Part shown: positions 6,869 to 20,372 of the stretch, in pieces
Position numbering within the stretch: the stretch's first letter is position 1
Layout: every line of letters starts with the position of its first letter
Assembly: GCA_964448705.1 (NCBI GenBank)
Contig: CAYUZS010000003.1
Coordinates: 73,384-137,383, forward strand
Direction: 5' to 3'
Length of the DNA stretch: 64,000 nucleotides
Origin: an uncultured Gammaproteobacteria bacterium
Lineage (GTDB): Bacteria > Patescibacteriota > Microgenomatia > UBA12405
The notes under the pieces: generated by a model
Database searches by the model: none
What the model saw: only the letters and a program-made list of their open reading frames with translations
What the model was told of the DNA's origin: nothing
Translations under genes and position numbers: made by a program

Positions 6869-7801
6869 TTATTTATTTCCGTGATGAAATTTATCATGAA
6901 CTTCCCGTAATCTTGCATCAGTTACATGAGTATAAATTTGAGTAGTTGCGATATTTTTATGACCAAGCATTTCCTGAACGGACCGTAGGTCGGCTCCTGC
7001 TCTCAACAGATCGGTCGCCATTGAATGACGTAGAGTATGTGGTGTCGCCGCCACCGGAATCTTGGCCTGATGGACATATCTTTTTACAATGTTTTGTACC
7101 GAACGACTGGTTAACCTCGCTTTTTCGTCCGTCGAAATTAAGCCTCTTCGTTTGGAATAGTTTATAAACAATGGTTTCATTTTGTCAGTTCTTTCCCGAA
7201 GATATCTTTCCAACCACGTTGCCGCTTGTTTGGAAATAAACACCACTCTGGCCCGACCGCCTTTTCCGATCACTCCGAATTCTCTGGTTTTCAAATCTAT
7301 CTGATCTCTATCCAGGGACACCAGTTCTGACACCCGTAGACCGCTGGAAAATAACAATTCCAGCAATGCCTTGTCTCGTATCCCGATTGGTGTTGATACT
7401 AATGGCTGACTTAACAGTCTGTCGATTTGGTCGTCATTCAAAAACTTTAATGAATGATCCTTATTTTTGGGAACATCCAATTTTTCCGGCTCCATAACTT
7501 TCTTGTCATTTTTTACCAGCCATTTCAAAAACGACCTTAATACTATTACGTAATATCCCTGAGTCACTATCTTCATATCGCCGTAAACACCCGGCTGTCT
7601 CGATAAATACAATCTGAATTTTCTGATATTTTCACTATTAATATCCTTTAACGATGGTTTTTCAATTTTTAGTTCTTCCTCTAAATATTTTTCCAGCCGG
7701 TAAAGATAATGTTCATACTTTACCATTGTCAGTCGGGAACAGTTTCTCTCAATTTCCAAATGTTCCAAAAATCTTCTTATAAAAACGTGCAATTCATCCA
7801 T
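6869..7801 (-). CDS. tyrosine site-specific recombinase, XerC/XerD family
   Basis: 310 aa with N-terminal SAM-like core-binding domain and catalytic C-terminus HTLRHSMATDLL...LGHKNIATTQIYTHV. Confidence 0.85.
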   Translation of the reverse strand: MDELHVFIRRFLEHLEIERNCSRLTMVKYEHYLYRLEKYLEEELKIEKPSLKDINSENIRKFRLYLSRQPGVYGDMKIVTQGYYVIVLRSFLKWLVKNDKKVMEPEKLDVPKNKDHSLKFLNDDQIDRLLSQPLVSTPIGIRDKALLELLFSSGLRVSELVSLDRDQIDLKTREFGVIGKGGRARVVFISKQAATWLERYLRERTDKMKPLFINYSKRRGLISTDEKARLTSRSVQNIVKRYVHQAKIPVAATPHTLRHSMATDLLRAGADLRSVQEMLGHKNIATTQIYTHVTDARLREVHDKFHHGNK

Positions 7802-11823: not shown

Positions 11824-12258
11824 CTATTTTTCCTGTTCTTTAGCACAATCGATACACAGAGTTGTTTCTGGACGGATCGTCAACCGGTCGGTATCAATCA
11901 TTTTTCCGCATTTCTCGCAAATTCCATACTTTCCCAATTTAATTCTGGTCATAGCTTTACGCAATTGAACCAGCTGTTTTTTAACAAAACTAACCTTCAC
12001 CTCAGTGTCAAATCTACCTACTTGTTCGTCGACATCCTCTTCAGGCGAATTATTTGAGGTTCTATTTTCATCCATAAAAGGATCACTCTTTTTAAAATTT
12101 CTTTCAGTTTTTTTCCATTTCACAATTTCTTTTTCTAAAAAAGTTTTGATTGGCACCAACAACCTCGCTGGTATCGTGATAGATTCAGAATTATTGTCCT
12201 TTTTTGTCACTGTTTCTCCTTTGGCCAAAGACCAACAAACTATTAAAAACCTCTCCAA
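11824..12258 (-). CDS. DksA/TraR-family C4 zinc-finger protein
   Basis: C-terminal CEKCGKMIDTDRLTIRPETTLCIDC. A GTG at 12210 preceded by GGAG may be the true start. Confidence 0.7.
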   Translation of the reverse strand: MERFLIVCWSLAKGETVTKKDNNSESITIPARLLVPIKTFLEKEIVKWKKTERNFKKSDPFMDENRTSNNSPEEDVDEQVGRFDTEVKVSFVKKQLVQLRKAMTRIKLGKYGICEKCGKMIDTDRLTIRPETTLCIDCAKEQEK

Positions 12259-12877
12259 GAATAAACAATCCTATCATAAAAAGCAAACTCAAAACTGAAA
12301 ATATACCGGCTATTATTTTTTCCTGGAAAAATACCGCCGCTACTGCTATCAGTAAACAGACAATCATATTCACAAAGAAAAACACAAAACCCTTCTTCCC
12401 GCTTTTATACCAGATCATCGACCGATATTTTTTAGCCACCAGCCTGGCAATCACGTATCCGATAATCACTATTGTCAAATAAATCAGATTTTGAAAAACA
12501 ATCCCTTTTTCCAAAATTTCTAAAGTCAGCATTATCGCCGACAATAAATATATCAGCCTGGTAATATCCTCAAAAAAAGACCATATTTTCCAATCATTTT
12601 TCCAACAATACCACCAGGTAGTCAGAAAAATTAAACCTAAACCTCCCCAATAATTAAAACCCGGTTTACTCCAAAACAACAGCCAATCAACCGGCTGGCC
12701 GTTCCATATTCCCCAATTAATTAAACCGTAAGTTACTCTTCCGCCCAAAACGAACATTAACCAGCTTAACCAGGAATAAGCCACCAACTTCTCATCCTGA
12801 TAGTTATCTCTTAAATTCCTCCAGGTAAGGTACAGAAACAGAATTACTACTATCAATTTCAGCAGTCCAAGAATCAT
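12191..12877 (-). CDS. integral membrane protein, weakly Lgt-like
   Basis: Multi-TM. VLGGRVTYGL...WGGLGLI resembles the Lgt N-terminal half. The GNF motif is absent. Sits next to lspA-like gene. Confidence 0.35.
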   Translation of the reverse strand: MILGLLKLIVVILFLYLTWRNLRDNYQDEKLVAYSWLSWLMFVLGGRVTYGLINWGIWNGQPVDWLLFWSKPGFNYWGGLGLIFLTTWWYCWKNDWKIWSFFEDITRLIYLLSAIMLTLEILEKGIVFQNLIYLTIVIIGYVIARLVAKKYRSMIWYKSGKKGFVFFFVNMIVCLLIAVAAVFFQEKIIAGIFSVLSLLFMIGLFILGEVFNSLLVFGQRRNSDKKGQ

Positions 12878-15409: not shown

Positions 15410-16102
15410 ATGAATCCCTTATTTCTTCTTGCCCTGGCAGCTACCATCACCCCCACTCCGACTATTGTTTCCACTCCTACTTCAACCGACATTCAAAAAA
15501 TTCGGGAAGTTGTTCAGCAAAAAGTCCAGGAAAAACTGAAAGAAATCACCACCAGCACCACCACTAAAAAAGGTATCATCGGCCAAATAATTCAAATCGA
15601 CCCCAACCAAATTACCATTGAATACCAAGGGAAAACCCGGGTACTCTCCATCGACAGCACTACCGTCTATGTTGATACCAATAGAAATAAAACCACTCTC
15701 GAAAAAATAAAAATCGGTCAGGGAATTTTGGCTATGGGAACAGAAGAATCGGAAACTAATAAATTTCAGGCCACCAGAATTGTTTTTACTGATCTAAAAA
15801 CAATTGTTGTCACCAATACAATTGCTGTCGGAAAAATTGTTGACATTTCCAAGACCACATCAGTTTTTTCCTTAATACCCAGTAAAAACAAGAATACTCA
15901 ATATCAGATTAAAACCGATTCCAAAACTAAAATTTACGGACCGGATAACACCGAAATCAATCTCAAATCCATGCAGTCCGGCCATCGGATAATTGTTATT
16001 TTAACCCCCGATCCAAAAATAACTAACACCTATTACGCTTCTAAGATCTTAAATCTGGACTATTCTCCGGCGGTTTCCCCTACCCCCACTCCCAAACCTT
16101 AA
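15410..16102 (+). CDS. secreted protein, function unknown
   Basis: Hydrophobic N-terminus and TPTPT linkers at both ends. Starts 2 nt after the upstream gene. Confidence 0.4.
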   Translation: MNPLFLLALAATITPTPTIVSTPTSTDIQKIREVVQQKVQEKLKEITTSTTTKKGIIGQIIQIDPNQITIEYQGKTRVLSIDSTTVYVDTNRNKTTLEKIKIGQGILAMGTEESETNKFQATRIVFTDLKTIVVTNTIAVGKIVDISKTTSVFSLIPSKNKNTQYQIKTDSKTKIYGPDNTEINLKSMQSGHRIIVILTPDPKITNTYYASKILNLDYSPAVSPTPTPKP

Positions 16103-16105
16103 TTG

Positions 16106-16133
16106 TTGACTTAAGTCCCATAATTGTTAAAAT
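16106..16133 (+). promoter_or_regulatory. sigma70-like promoter TTGACT-16nt-TGtTAAAAT
   Basis: -35 at 16106-16111 and extended -10 at 16125-16133. The ATG of the leader ORF follows 7 nt later. Confidence 0.35.
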
Positions 16134-16140
16134 ATCCTTG

Positions 16141-16182
16141 ATGATCAATCTAGGCAAAATAAACCATCATCACGTCAACTAA
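16141..16182 (+). CDS. candidate histidine leader peptide MINLGKINHHHVN
   Basis: 13 codons with CAT CAT CAC at 16165-16173, directly upstream of an attenuator and tRNA-His/hisS. Confidence 0.45.
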   Translation: MINLGKINHHHVN

Positions 16183-16186
16183 TCGT

Positions 16187-16229
16187 TGGCGGAATTTTGC
16201 TTGCCGATCCGCCATTCAGGCGGATTTTT
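16187..16229 (+). promoter_or_regulatory. three-segment transcription attenuator (antiterminator versus terminator)
   Basis: Segment 2, ATCCGCC (16207-16213), can pair with segment 1, TGGCGGA (16187-16193), or with segment 3, GGCGGAT (16219-16225). Segment 3 is followed by TTTT. Confidence 0.45.
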
Positions 16230-16257
16230 AGTATTATTAGGTCATCTTTAACAATCT

Positions 16258-16335
16258 GGTGGGATTAGCTCAATTGGTTAGAGCATCTGCCTGTGGAGCA
16301 GAAGGTTGCCGGTCCAAGTCCGGTATCTCACCCCA
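16258..16335 (+). tRNA. tRNA-His (anticodon GTG) with G-1 and encoded CCA
   Basis: Manual fold: G-1, acceptor GTGGGAT/ATCTCAC, anticodon arm TCTGC-CTGTGGA-GCAGA, T arm GCCGG-TCCAAGT-CCGGT (non-canonical T loop). Confidence 0.85.
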
Positions 16336-16426
16336 TGAAATTATTCATTCTACAATTCGTCCATCATTTACATACCGTGGCTGCCAAACCGGCGGGGTGT
16401 TGACGCAGCGTTTATCTTAATAATTT

Positions 16427-16452
16427 AAATCCCCGTAAACCGGGGATTTTTT
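16427..16452 (+). terminator. rho-independent terminator
   Basis: 9-bp stem AAATCCCCG/CGGGGATTT with loop TAAAC, followed by a T run. Confidence 0.6.
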
Positions 16453-16478
16453 ATATCTAAATTATCAATTTATCTTCA

Positions 16479-17738
16479 ATGTTAAAATCAACTATGATTC
16501 AAAATAAACCTCAAACCCTCAAAGGTTTCCGTGATTTTTTACCTTCAGAAATGAGGGTTCGTAACTATGTCAAAAATTTACTTATCGGAGTTTTTGAAAA
16601 CTATGGTTTTGAACCTTTGGAAACCCCTGCTCTCGAATACACTTCGGTTCTTAAAGGTAAATATAGTTCAGAAACCGACGATAAACTCGGATACTTCTTT
16701 AAGGACAACGGTGATAGAGAGATTGGTCTGAGATACGATCTCACTGTTCCTGTTTCAAAAGTTTTAGCAATTTACAGCAACCAAATTCCCTTACCCTTCA
16801 AAAGGTATCAAGTCCAGTCTGTCTGGAGAGCCGACAATACTCAAAGAGGTCGATACCGCGAGTTTATCCAGTGTGATATAGATACTTTTGGTTCCACCTC
16901 CCCTCTCTCTGATGCCGAAATAATTTCTATTATTTACACCGCCACTCAAAAACTGAACTTTCAAAAGTTTACTATTCGCCTCAACAGCCGTTCTGTTTTA
17001 ATGGCCGTCCTTGCTAAAAGCGGCCTGGATGGTCAACAAAAAACAGTACTTCAAAGTCTCGATAAGTTCGACAAAATAGGTGAAAAAGGAGTAAAAGATG
17101 AACTCATATCAAAAGGCCTCACCGACCCCCAAATCACCTCTCTTTTCAAATATATCAAACTCGCACAGCCGGACGATAATCTTCAGCAGGTTTTTGCTGC
17201 TTTAAAAGCTTTCAATGTCCCGGAAAGTTTTTATTTATTCGATCCGACTTTGGTTCGCGGCCCCGACTATTACACCGGTACTATTTTTGAAACCTCTGTC
17301 ACCGAACCCCAAATCGGCGCCATCGGCGGCGGCGGTCGTTATGATAATTTAATTGAAAACTTAGGAGGGCCGAATATTCCCGCCGTCGGTTACAGTTTTG
17401 GATTCGAAAGAATTATTGATTGTGTCAACGAATTAAATCTTTTACCCGATTTACCAAAAACCGTCACCAAAGTTTTAGTTGCTAATTTTAGTCAGGAAAC
17501 TTTACCTGATTCTATGGCTTTAATTTCTCAGCTTCAATCCGCCGATATCCCCTCTTACATCTATCCGGATACCGACAAATTGGGAAAACAATTTAAGTAT
17601 GCCAGTGACAAAAACATTCCGTATGTTGCCGTCATTGGTCCGGATGAGGCTAAAAATAATCAGATCACTGTCAAAGATATGTCTACGGGTACCCAGAAAA
17701 CAGTTACCCGGGATGAAATCGTCAATTATCTGCTATAA
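16479..17738 (+). CDS. hisS: histidyl-tRNA synthetase
   Basis: 419 aa class II aaRS with LKGFRDFLP, RYDLTVP, YREFIQCDID and GGGRYDNL. Confidence 0.95.
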   Translation: MLKSTMIQNKPQTLKGFRDFLPSEMRVRNYVKNLLIGVFENYGFEPLETPALEYTSVLKGKYSSETDDKLGYFFKDNGDREIGLRYDLTVPVSKVLAIYSNQIPLPFKRYQVQSVWRADNTQRGRYREFIQCDIDTFGSTSPLSDAEIISIIYTATQKLNFQKFTIRLNSRSVLMAVLAKSGLDGQQKTVLQSLDKFDKIGEKGVKDELISKGLTDPQITSLFKYIKLAQPDDNLQQVFAALKAFNVPESFYLFDPTLVRGPDYYTGTIFETSVTEPQIGAIGGGGRYDNLIENLGGPNIPAVGYSFGFERIIDCVNELNLLPDLPKTVTKVLVANFSQETLPDSMALISQLQSADIPSYIYPDTDKLGKQFKYASDKNIPYVAVIGPDEAKNNQITVKDMSTGTQKTVTRDEIVNYLL

Positions 17739-19205: not shown

Positions 19206-20372
19206 TTAGCTCTGTTTCTTTTCCAACTTTACGCTCAGATTCAATTGCTTTTTGTCTCTCCACAGGACCAGGTTAACCATGTCCCCGATTTTCTTTTTAT
19301 TAATCAATTCGGCCATGGAAAAATCTTTATCGTCACCAATTTTAATTCCGTCTATTTCGGTAATCACATCCCCCACTTTCAAACCGGCTTTTTCCGCCGG
19401 GCTATTTTCTAAAACTTGCTGCACATAGGCTCCGGCAGCCATTTCATTCATCAATGCTGTCTCTTTATCAATCATCCGATAACCTACTCCCATATACGGT
19501 CTATCGAATTCACCTGTCGTTCTGAAATTATCAATCGACTGTTTCACTAAATTTATCGGCAGAGCAAAACCTATATTTTGACCGGATTGAGACACTGCCA
19601 CGTTCACTCCGATCACTTGCCCTGATGAATCTATTAACGGACCTCCGGAATTACCGGAATTAATCGCCGCATCAGTCTGAATTACATTATCAAGTTTTTC
19701 CGAACCTCCGGATAATAATGAACCTGCCACAATTGCTCTTCCCAAGCCGGAAACCACTCCGGTAGTTACCGTTGACCTGAATTCACCCAATGCCGTGCCG
19801 ATAGCAATCACCGTTTGCCCCACTTTAACCTGATCCGAATCGCCTAAATTCAAAGGCGTTAATCCTGTCTTATTTACTTTTAAAATCGCCAAATCGGTTG
19901 AAGGGTCACGGTAAATATCCACTACCTCTTCTGTTTCGTCTTTACCGATTAACACCCGATATTTAGCCTCAACATTATCAACCACATGTTTATTGGTCAC
20001 AATTAATCCGTCGCTGCTGATCACAAAACCCGTCCCGATGTTCTGATAATTTTCTTCAGGACTTTTTGAAGGTACCGGAATATTAAAAAAATTATTAAAT
20101 AAATCATTGGTAATATTGACGGTGTTTTTATTGCTGATTGCCACTGTCACCACGCTTGGCGAAGACTCCTCCACCACCTTAGTCACCACCGATTCTTCGT
20201 CCATCACTACCGTCTTTTGATTAGTCAATTCGACTCCGCTTTTGTTTAACAATTTATCCAATAAAGGAAACCCTTTTAATTTCTCGTAAGCCGCCCCTCC
20301 GATAGTTGTCATCACCAACAATATCGCTACTCCAAATCCCAACCAAAAATTTTTTCGGGTTTCGTTTTTCAT
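19206..20372 (-). CDS. htrA: HtrA/DegP-family serine protease with PDZ domain
   Basis: N-terminal TM helix, trypsin-fold motifs TNKHVV and GNSGGPL, C-terminal PDZ domain. Confidence 0.9.
   Translation of the reverse strand: MKNETRKNFWLGFGVAILLVMTTIGGAAYEKLKGFPLLDKLLNKSGVELTNQKTVVMDEESVVTKVVEESSPSVVTVAISNKNTVNITNDLFNNFFNIPVPSKSPEENYQNIGTGFVISSDGLIVTNKHVVDNVEAKYRVLIGKDETEEVVDIYRDPSTDLAILKVNKTGLTPLNLGDSDQVKVGQTVIAIGTALGEFRSTVTTGVVSGLGRAIVAGSLLSGGSEKLDNVIQTDAAINSGNSGGPLIDSSGQVIGVNVAVSQSGQNIGFALPINLVKQSIDNFRTTGEFDRPYMGVGYRMIDKETALMNEMAAGAYVQQVLENSPAEKAGLKVGDVITEIDGIKIGDDKDFSMAELINKKKIGDMVNLVLWRDKKQLNLSVKLEKKQS

Follow-up and report, generated by a model that had tools for sequence, protein, structure and literature searches.

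We analysed a 64,000-nt stretch (hereafter, the window) of contig CAYUZS010000003.1 in assembly GCA_964448705.1, which comes from an uncultured bacterium of the Shapirobacteria, within the candidate phyla radiation (CPR). In this window a tRNA-His gene stands between two short elements, each with histidine codons at its 5' side and an intrinsic terminator at its 3' end, and hisS, the gene for histidyl-tRNA synthetase (HisRS), follows on the same strand. On the evidence of its relatives, the first element is very probably a transcription attenuator of the classical, ribosome-mediated leader-peptide type, with charged tRNA-His as its signal. A preliminary description of the element, made from the sequence alone, had pointed to such a function, and the promoter, the leaderless-type open reading frame (ORF), the three consecutive His codons (HHH), the pairings, the terminator and the tRNA-His gene that it listed are all present where it had placed them. 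The parts of this element (attenuator 1) and the gene behind it are as follows:

16106-16111 (+): -35 hexamer TTGACT of the leader promoter, recognized in the sequence; TTGACT or TTGACA at the same place in many relatives
16125-16133 (+): extended -10 element TGtTAAAAT, 16-nt spacer from the -35 hexamer, 7 nt 5' of the leader ATG
16141-16182 (+): leader ORF 1, MINLGKINHHHVN and stop, 13 codons; ORF kept in 23/23 relatives
16151-16160 (+): 5' arm of the outer helix P0, UAGGCAAAAU, in leader codons 4-7; from minimum free energy (MFE) structures and covariation
16165-16173 (+): regulatory His codons CAT CAT CAC; HHH in 20/23 relatives, HRH in 2 and HHF in 1
16173-16179 (+): segment 1, CGUCAAC, overlapping the last His, the Val and the Asn codons; forms the anti-antiterminator with segment 2
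16185-16193 (+): segment 2, GUUGGCGGA (segment 1 of the preliminary description); TGG[C/T]GG 0-4 nt 3' of the stop in 23/23 relatives
16194-16203 (+): 3' arm of P0, AUUUUGCUUG; from MFE structures and covariation
16206-16214 (+): segment 3, GAUCCGCCA, 5' arm of the terminator and antiterminator partner; pairs with segment 2
16219-16229 (+): segment 4, GGCGGAUU, with U-run; intrinsic terminator together with segment 3
16258-16335 (+): tRNA-His(GUG) with encoded G-1 (16258) and CCA, found by ARAGORN and Rfam; the body without G-1 is 16259-16335

The HisRS encoded in the window is 61-77% identical to the HisRS of Candidatus Shapirobacteria metagenome-assembled genomes (Microgenomates, CPR), and a metagenome scan contributed further loci; the loci of relatives carry labels such as L001 and L002. 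Most of these loci have tRNA-His upstream of hisS and in the same orientation. From 20 copies of attenuator 1 we built a covariance model, which retrieved 23 distinct sequences from genomes of Shapirobacteria and from metagenomes, with E values from 1e-8 to 1e-23. The element is not a product of chance, and its conservation in these 23 distinct relatives is the decisive evidence for this. Results also showed a clear coding signature. In the first 13 codons of the 23 copies no stop occurs in frame 0, compared with 37 and 9 stops in the other two frames. The His codons change only between CAT and CAC, and the N-terminal residues of the leader vary freely among relatives. Since the frame is kept open, the His codons change only at the synonymous position and the N-terminus is variable, the ORF and its His codons are under selection and the peptide itself is not. 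The layout of the 23 copies is likewise nearly fixed. There are 8-10 codons 5' of the His codons, the last regulatory codon is 2-3 codons away from the stop, TGG[C/T]GG lies 0-4 nt beyond the stop, segments 2 and 3 are 16-25 nt apart, and the U-run measures 4-8 nt. The codon string by itself would carry little weight: (CAY)3 is found 20 times in the window when all frames are counted and is therefore not significant alone. The long ORFs of the window contain 1.4% His and no HHH. When both strands of the window were scanned for a -10 box, an ATG, a mini-ORF and a terminator in combination, this site was the sole match, and no other leaderless mini-ORF plus terminator unit (e.g., before cysS) was found in the 64 kb. 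The GC skew of the window ranges from -0.07 to -0.36 across all 4-kb bins of positions 1-64000, with C exceeding G on the + strand and no switch.

The leader region (16140-16232) folds with RNAfold at -30.2 kcal/mol (z = -4.7), and none of 200 shuffled sequences folded as well. A raw MAFFT alignment analysed with RNAalifold recovered the 1:2 helix alone; since MAFFT had misaligned the outer helix and the terminator, the alignment was rebuilt with the covariance model (alignment A4). The preliminary description had proposed three segments. Those segments and their pairings are there, whereas the actual design comprises four segments plus P0, and both additions, i.e., the 1:2 hairpin and P0, covary. 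The 1:2 hairpin has an energy of -7.3 kcal/mol (z = -7.0). Columns 40 and 58 of the alignment hold an A-U pair in 11 sequences and a G-C pair in 8, the covarying bases being the first base of the codon after HHH (A in ACN, G in GCN or GUN) and the C or U of TGGYGG. The same C or U faces a G in segment 3, and therefore both states remain paired. The arms of P0 fall into 4-5 covarying sequence classes, with an average energy of -8.8 kcal/mol for cognate arms and -4.7 kcal/mol for swapped arms, and both-sided changes were seen at 8/10 of its pairs. Together, P0 and the 1:2 hairpin reach -15.9 kcal/mol. The antiterminator, formed by TGGCGGA (16187-16193) of segment 2 and TCCGCCA (16208-16214) of segment 3, has an energy of -10.7 kcal/mol, and its helix is paired in 96.9% of cells in the 23 sequences, compared with 25-64% in shifted registers. 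The terminator GAUCCGCC/GGCGGAUU (16206-16226), with a U-run extending to 16229, has an energy of -13.1 kcal/mol (z = -4.7); it is present in 23/23 relatives and 94% paired. For the terminated-state structure as a whole, 74.7% of cells of the rebuilt alignment are paired, compared with 33-47% when one side is slid, and the covariation score is 0.185 compared with at most 0.09 in slid registers, with 12 pairs showing both-sided changes. The observed value was matched by 0/500 shuffles. The slid control is the safer of the two, since relatedness can inflate the shuffle control. Comparison of relatives for an HHH mini-ORF and compensatory changes, as outlined in the preliminary description, thus favored the mini-ORF, the 1:2 helix and P0, whereas no compensatory changes were found in the antiterminator, which shows no double changes across the 23 sequences.

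To represent the ribosome, transcripts were cut just 5' of segment 4, the ribosome footprint was masked and the remainder was folded. Equilibrium folds of full-length leaders with a masked footprint still formed the terminator in most cases; since such folds are the wrong test for a kinetic switch, they were replaced by folds of the cut transcripts. With a ribosome at the third regulatory codon, the antiterminator formed in 23/23 sequences, and with a ribosome at the stop codon it formed in 0/23. The proposal that a His-codon leader peptide chooses between antiterminator and terminator ahead of tRNA-His is thus supported by the comparison of the 23 relatives.

The leader promoter is the best promoter-like site between 14 and 19 kb (10/12 matches plus TG). 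Its position predicts a transcript start at about 16140-16141 and hence a leaderless RNA. The same had been suggested in the preliminary description, and the relatives agree with it, as a TAnnAT box lies 6-8 nt 5' of the leader ATG in 23/23 of them. Among long ORFs of the window, 13/49 have a TAnnAT box 4-9 nt before the ATG and 6/49 have a Shine-Dalgarno (SD)-like motif. Since SD motifs are rare and -10-to-ATG starts common, a leaderless leader fits this organism. Examples of leaderless-type starts in the window were seen upstream of 1306, 6869-7801(-), 12191-12877(-), 19206-20372(-) and 57466.

The gene behind attenuator 1 is always on the same strand and is tRNA-His at 16/23 loci and hisS, with no tRNA between, at 7/23. 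At L001, L043 and L112 the tRNA-His gene starts 3-6 nt after the U-run; since this leaves no room for a promoter of its own, the tRNA there would be transcribed by read-through alone. Several side observations concern tRNA-His copies in relatives. A 17-nt motif, ATGTTAAAATAAACCAC, which resembles CAAAATAAACCATCATCAC of the window leader, is kept upstream of tRNA-His copies that have no leader (L002, L007, L012:640-693, L014, L018, L021, L022:~530-690, L023 and L059). L012 and L022 have two identical tRNA-His genes, one behind such a plain promoter and the other behind the attenuator. In one group of relatives, the first terminator and tRNA-His are 100-150 nt apart, and this spacer contains a further conserved hairpin, AGGnCAAAATTTG...CAAATTTTGCCT (L012:1970-2077, L013:1640-1760, L015:3324-3466, L022:1628-1729, L081 and L136); it is absent from the window. 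Two loci carry tRNA-His-like fragments beside the intact gene, i.e., a partial stretch at L005:3005-3090 and a copy broken by a GC-rich hairpin at L010:1780-1890, which may be pseudo-tRNAs or duplication scars.

Downstream of tRNA-His the window contains a second element of the same kind, followed by hisS:

16335-16403 (+): leader ORF 2, MKLFILQFVHHLHTVAAKPAGC and stop; its ATG begins at the A of the tRNA CCA, and its His codons lie at 16362-16367 and 16371-16373
16375-16397 (+): sensing region of attenuator 2, with segment 1' CCGUGG (16375-16380) and segment 2' CCGGCGGGG (16389-16397)
16427-16452 (+): terminator of attenuator 2, AAAUCCCCG-UAAAC-CGGGGAUUU with U-run, -12.9 kcal/mol
16480-16488 (+): extended -10 element of hisS itself, TGTTAAAAT, 6 nt before ATG 16495, predicting a leaderless hisS transcript
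16495-17738 (+): hisS, histidyl-tRNA synthetase, beginning MIQNKPQTLKGFRDF; from its translation and identity to Shapirobacteria HisRS

In the preliminary description the terminator at 16427-16452 was a reason to doubt the coupling to hisS. This doubt can be set aside, since the terminator belongs to a second conserved His attenuator (16335-16452); as the aligned sequences indicate, it is a second His gate and not an uncoupler. The tRNA-His gene would hence have a His attenuator on either side, the two being arranged in tandem ahead of hisS. Attenuator 2 was found in 15 distinct sequences, and in 14/15 its ORF of 22-26 codons contains HxH, HHxH or HxxH. In leader 2, ACC GUG G invariably follows the last His codon. 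The 1':2' helix, in which CCGUGG pairs with CCGCGG of segment 2', is 95.6% paired. An alternative long hairpin has a base that in the window consists of GCUGC (16380-16384) and GCAGC (16405-16409) and that covaries among relatives (GCUGC/GCAGC, GUCAC/GUGAC, GGUCA/UGGCC and GGUAC/GUGCC). The window antiterminator can form between GCGGGG (16392-16397) and CCCCGU of the 5' terminator arm (16431-16436), and this pairing (GCGGGG with CCCCGY) is 98.9% paired in the 15 sequences, i.e., conserved and not covarying. In the footprint model a ribosome stalled at the last His codon of leader 2 gave the antiterminator in 15/15. At L002 and L091, attenuator 2 has a TTGACT-17-TAAAAT promoter of its own, which lies 8 nt 5' of the mini-ORF. 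L091 (136-270) has ATT instead of the leader 2 ATG behind this intact promoter. The ATT may reflect a sequencing variant, leaderless initiation at a codon other than ATG, or decay of this copy.

An ORF does start at 16479, where the preliminary description had placed hisS; ATG 16495 is, however, the more likely true start. The residues 'MLKST' before it are probably promoter sequence read as codons, since the conserved TGTTAAAAT box stands at this place in relatives too; the same -10 motif and spacing precede hisS at L002, L006, L009, L014, L018, L023, L059 and L087. In relatives, variable genes lie between attenuator 2 and hisS, and we noted an M20 peptidase, a GNAT protein, an M15 dipeptidase, a nucleoside hydrolase, a HAD hydrolase and unknowns among them (L001:2894-3973, L022:2812-3948, L016:2000-3980, L012:2328-3969 and L010:2677-3986). 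One might guess that the peptidases release histidine from peptides.

What was observed directly, i.e., the sequence features, their conservation, the open frame, the covariation of the anti-antiterminator and the fixed geometry, suggests how the start of transcription, leader translation, ribosome stalling, termination, read-through and the translation of read-through hisS mRNA might be connected. Transcription would start at about 16140, so that the leaderless RNA begins at the leader AUG, and a ribosome following the polymerase closely would translate MINLGKINHHHVN. With ample His-tRNA-His, this ribosome would reach the stop codon (16180-16182) and cover segment 2 (16185-16193); after its release, segment 2 would be locked in a long hairpin with segment 1 and P0. 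With segment 2 locked, segment 3 would pair with segment 4 and transcription would stop at the U-run (16229). When His-tRNA-His is scarce, the ribosome would stall at CAU CAU CAC, covering segment 1 and the 5' arm of P0 and leaving segment 2 free. The free segment 2 would then pair with segment 3, no terminator would form, and the polymerase would enter tRNA-His. By the same logic, attenuator 2 (leader MKLFILQFVHHLHTVAAKPAGC, terminator 16427-16452) would gate read-through into hisS. The net effect would be a feedback in which a shortage of charged tRNA-His leads to more tRNA-His and then to more HisRS.

Several observations weigh against this interpretation. The helices of the antiterminator and the terminator are conserved without covariation, and thus depend on conservation and register specificity, and the shuffle control can be exceeded by kin sequences that have no structure at all. 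In equilibrium folds of the cut transcript with no ribosome, segment 2 was sequestered in only 14/23 sequences, the window included; the default-off state of the other 9 would depend on folding kinetics, since their segment 2 is not sequestered at equilibrium. The run of three His codons is short compared with the seven in E. coli hisL. As for attenuator 2, the fold of the single sequence falls short of significance (z = -1.3), so its support is comparative, and its leader AUG is internal, overlaps the tRNA CCA and has no SD motif, so that ribosome loading is hard to explain. In the window, 28 nt containing a weak TATTAT separate the U-run from the tRNA, and at L016, L020 and L129 a clear extra promoter (extended -10) lies between terminator and tRNA; because of such promoter-like sites, read-through may not be the only source of the tRNA. 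In addition, hisS has its own promoter beside any read-through. Finally, about 11/25 Shapirobacteria species loci lack the attenuator, and hisS there follows a leaderless promoter only.

Four other explanations were considered. The element could be an independent small gene, for a noncoding RNA or a small His peptide, that merely adjoins a tRNA-His gene with its own promoter and has no regulatory link to it. It is indeed a unit with its own promoter and terminator, and the promoter-like sites between U-run and tRNA in the window and, more clearly, at L016, L020 and L129 are what such a view would expect. It is nevertheless very unlikely, because in 23/23 cases tRNA-His or hisS follows the element in the same orientation, the peptide is unconserved outside the His codons, which argues against a functional peptide, and segment 2 matches the 5' terminator arm with the register specificity described above, a property for which a plain terminator has no need. 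This fixed context and complementarity, together with the lack of room for a tRNA promoter at L001, L043 and L112, led us to reject it. The attenuator could alternatively be an evolutionary relic, i.e., the ancestral attenuator of a his operon ending in hisS that is now a leaky terminator and has little effect, other promoters being available to tRNA-His and hisS. The conserved leaderless promoter of hisS, the loss of the attenuator in about 11/25 related species, and the His leaders that distant relatives have before his biosynthesis genes plus hisS all favor this explanation. A relic would decay, however, and since all parts in the window are intact and constraint and compensatory changes are visible over 23 diverged copies, it is disfavored and seems very improbable.

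T-box leaders typically measure 200 nt or more. A T-box-like RNA, in which uncharged tRNA-His would pair with CAU/CAC as a 'specifier' and with UGGN of segment 2 and so stabilize the antiterminator without translation, is suggested by the presence of His codons and of UGG(C/U) beside the antiterminator, and the hisS of Firmicutes is T-box-regulated (PMC2965389). This is the least probable of the alternatives and may be regarded as extremely unlikely. At about 90 nt the element is short, Rfam returned no T-box match with the E limit raised to 10, and UGG is followed by C or U, whereas G would be required to pair with the C73 discriminator of the tRNA. Moreover, an ATG 6-8 nt after a -10 box, a uniquely open frame and a stop 0-4 nt before segment 2 would be left unexplained. 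The lack of an Rfam match, the length, the base after UGG and the ORF signature were our grounds for rejecting it. A real attenuator might also be set by a protein or other signal, with the His codons kept for RNA pairing (e.g., CCAUCA with UGGUGG) instead of being decoded. Where a copy carries TGGTGG, the His-codon region is a possible partner of segment 2, as in the MFE fold of L010, and third-position C/U changes are tolerable opposite G. However, copies with TGGCGG, the window included, cannot pair with CAUCAU and yet retain HHH; the conserved start codon, frame and stop position would have no explanation; and the association is specific to the His genes tRNA-His, hisS, hisG and hisI. We consider this explanation highly unlikely as well.

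A leader-peptide attenuator that reads His codons is textbook for his operons. The element has the parts that define this class, i.e., an ORF with cognate codons, a terminator, a mutually exclusive antiterminator and an anti-antiterminator overlapping the end of the ORF. A search of Rfam, with the window at the gathering threshold and 16050-16520 at E up to 10, returned tRNAs only and no His_leader, T-box or other leader; the weak matches were terminator look-alikes. Without a match to the RF00514 covariance model, the element works like a His leader and lies outside that homologous family; nor does it belong to the T-box family RF00230, considering the missing Rfam match, its length and a base after UGG that is not complementary to C73. 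The hisL leaders of E. coli and Salmonella (RF00514) are similar in having a short ORF with a His run and 1:2, 2:3 and 3:4 hairpins, of which 3:4 is the terminator, with the position of the ribosome deciding between them (PMC9413887). Besides the absent RF00514 match and the smaller number of His codons (3 in the window, 7 in hisL), the window leader differs in being leaderless, whereas hisL is SD-led, in having an extra outer helix made from the 5' codons of the leader, and in its targets, which are tRNA-His and hisS instead of biosynthesis genes.

Aminoacyl-tRNA synthetase genes are known or predicted targets of leader-peptide attenuation, i.e., pheST in gamma-proteobacteria and, by prediction, trpS and leuS in Streptomyces (PMC1262725). 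There too, a synthetase gene is raised when its charged tRNA is short. In contrast to the window, those units hold no tRNA gene, are not leaderless, have a single attenuator, and concern other amino acids and lineages. Closer in kind are the Firmicutes, in which a His leader has been predicted upstream of the Bacillus hisS paralog and of hisZ (PMC2965389) and in which lineage-specific His attenuators have 3-5 His codons and no RF00514 match (PMC9413887). These, too, place a His-codon mini-ORF and a terminator before a gene of the hisS family and are independent, lineage-specific inventions; the window element belongs to a different phylum (CPR/Microgenomates), stands also before tRNA-His and occurs twice in tandem, and homology between the two is unlikely. 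The Firmicutes hisS T-box shares with the window the target gene, the signal (tRNA-His charging) and a terminator versus antiterminator read-out, whereas it senses the tRNA directly through a long structured RNA and the window element, at about 90 nt, has an ORF signature and no T-box motifs. The preliminary description knew of no precedent at a tRNA-His/hisS locus or in CPR bacteria. The Bacillus predictions qualify the first part of that statement, and what remains is that our literature search, whose coverage was incomplete, turned up neither leader-peptide control of a tRNA gene nor attenuation in CPR bacteria; nothing relevant was found on leaderless translation in CPR bacteria either. 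The element is therefore a lineage-specific variant of a known mechanism, and what is unusual about it is the leaderless leader, the tRNA gene as a target and the two tandem attenuators before hisS.

More distant Microgenomates-like genomes, in which HisRS is 45-50% identical (Levybacteria and others), gave weaker matches to the model, and these matches are His-codon leaders with terminators. Such leaders precede hisG-hisH...hisS at L031 (204-1914), hisI-hisS at L041 (3378-3946, Levybacteria) and a racemase (Asp/Glu)-hisS operon at L026 (3061-3897). The leaders of L030, L031 and L046 are SD-led (GGGAGG) and not leaderless. His-codon leaders were also seen at L030:136-2321 and L046:130-2421; FAD oxidoreductase genes are among the genes so led, and hisS lies further downstream. 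This distribution would fit an old link of the His leader with an operon ending in hisS, followed by patchy loss. It suggests a testable history, in which the leaders of related lineages stand before hisG/hisH/hisI...hisS and those of Shapirobacteria stand only before hisS or tRNA-His. We lean, with some reserve, toward a fuller interpretation, in which a tRNA gene is autoregulated by its own charged level through a leaderless His leader and the second attenuator provides a two-stage induction of tRNA-His and HisRS from one promoter. No other tRNA gene under leader-peptide attenuation would then be known, and the attenuator would be the first described in the CPR, possibly derived from a his-operon leader after loss of the biosynthesis genes.

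CPR genomes are small, and if this interpretation is true, gene control would be achieved here by the ribosome and RNA folding alone. It would also imply a tight coupling of transcription and translation on leaderless mRNA in this group. With a tRNA gene inside an attenuated unit, charged tRNA-His would exert a direct feedback on the supply of tRNA-His, with a second gate for the synthetase, an arrangement that we did not find described. Finally, the ratio of reads across 16229 and 16452 could report histidine starvation of uncultured Shapirobacteria in metatranscriptomes.

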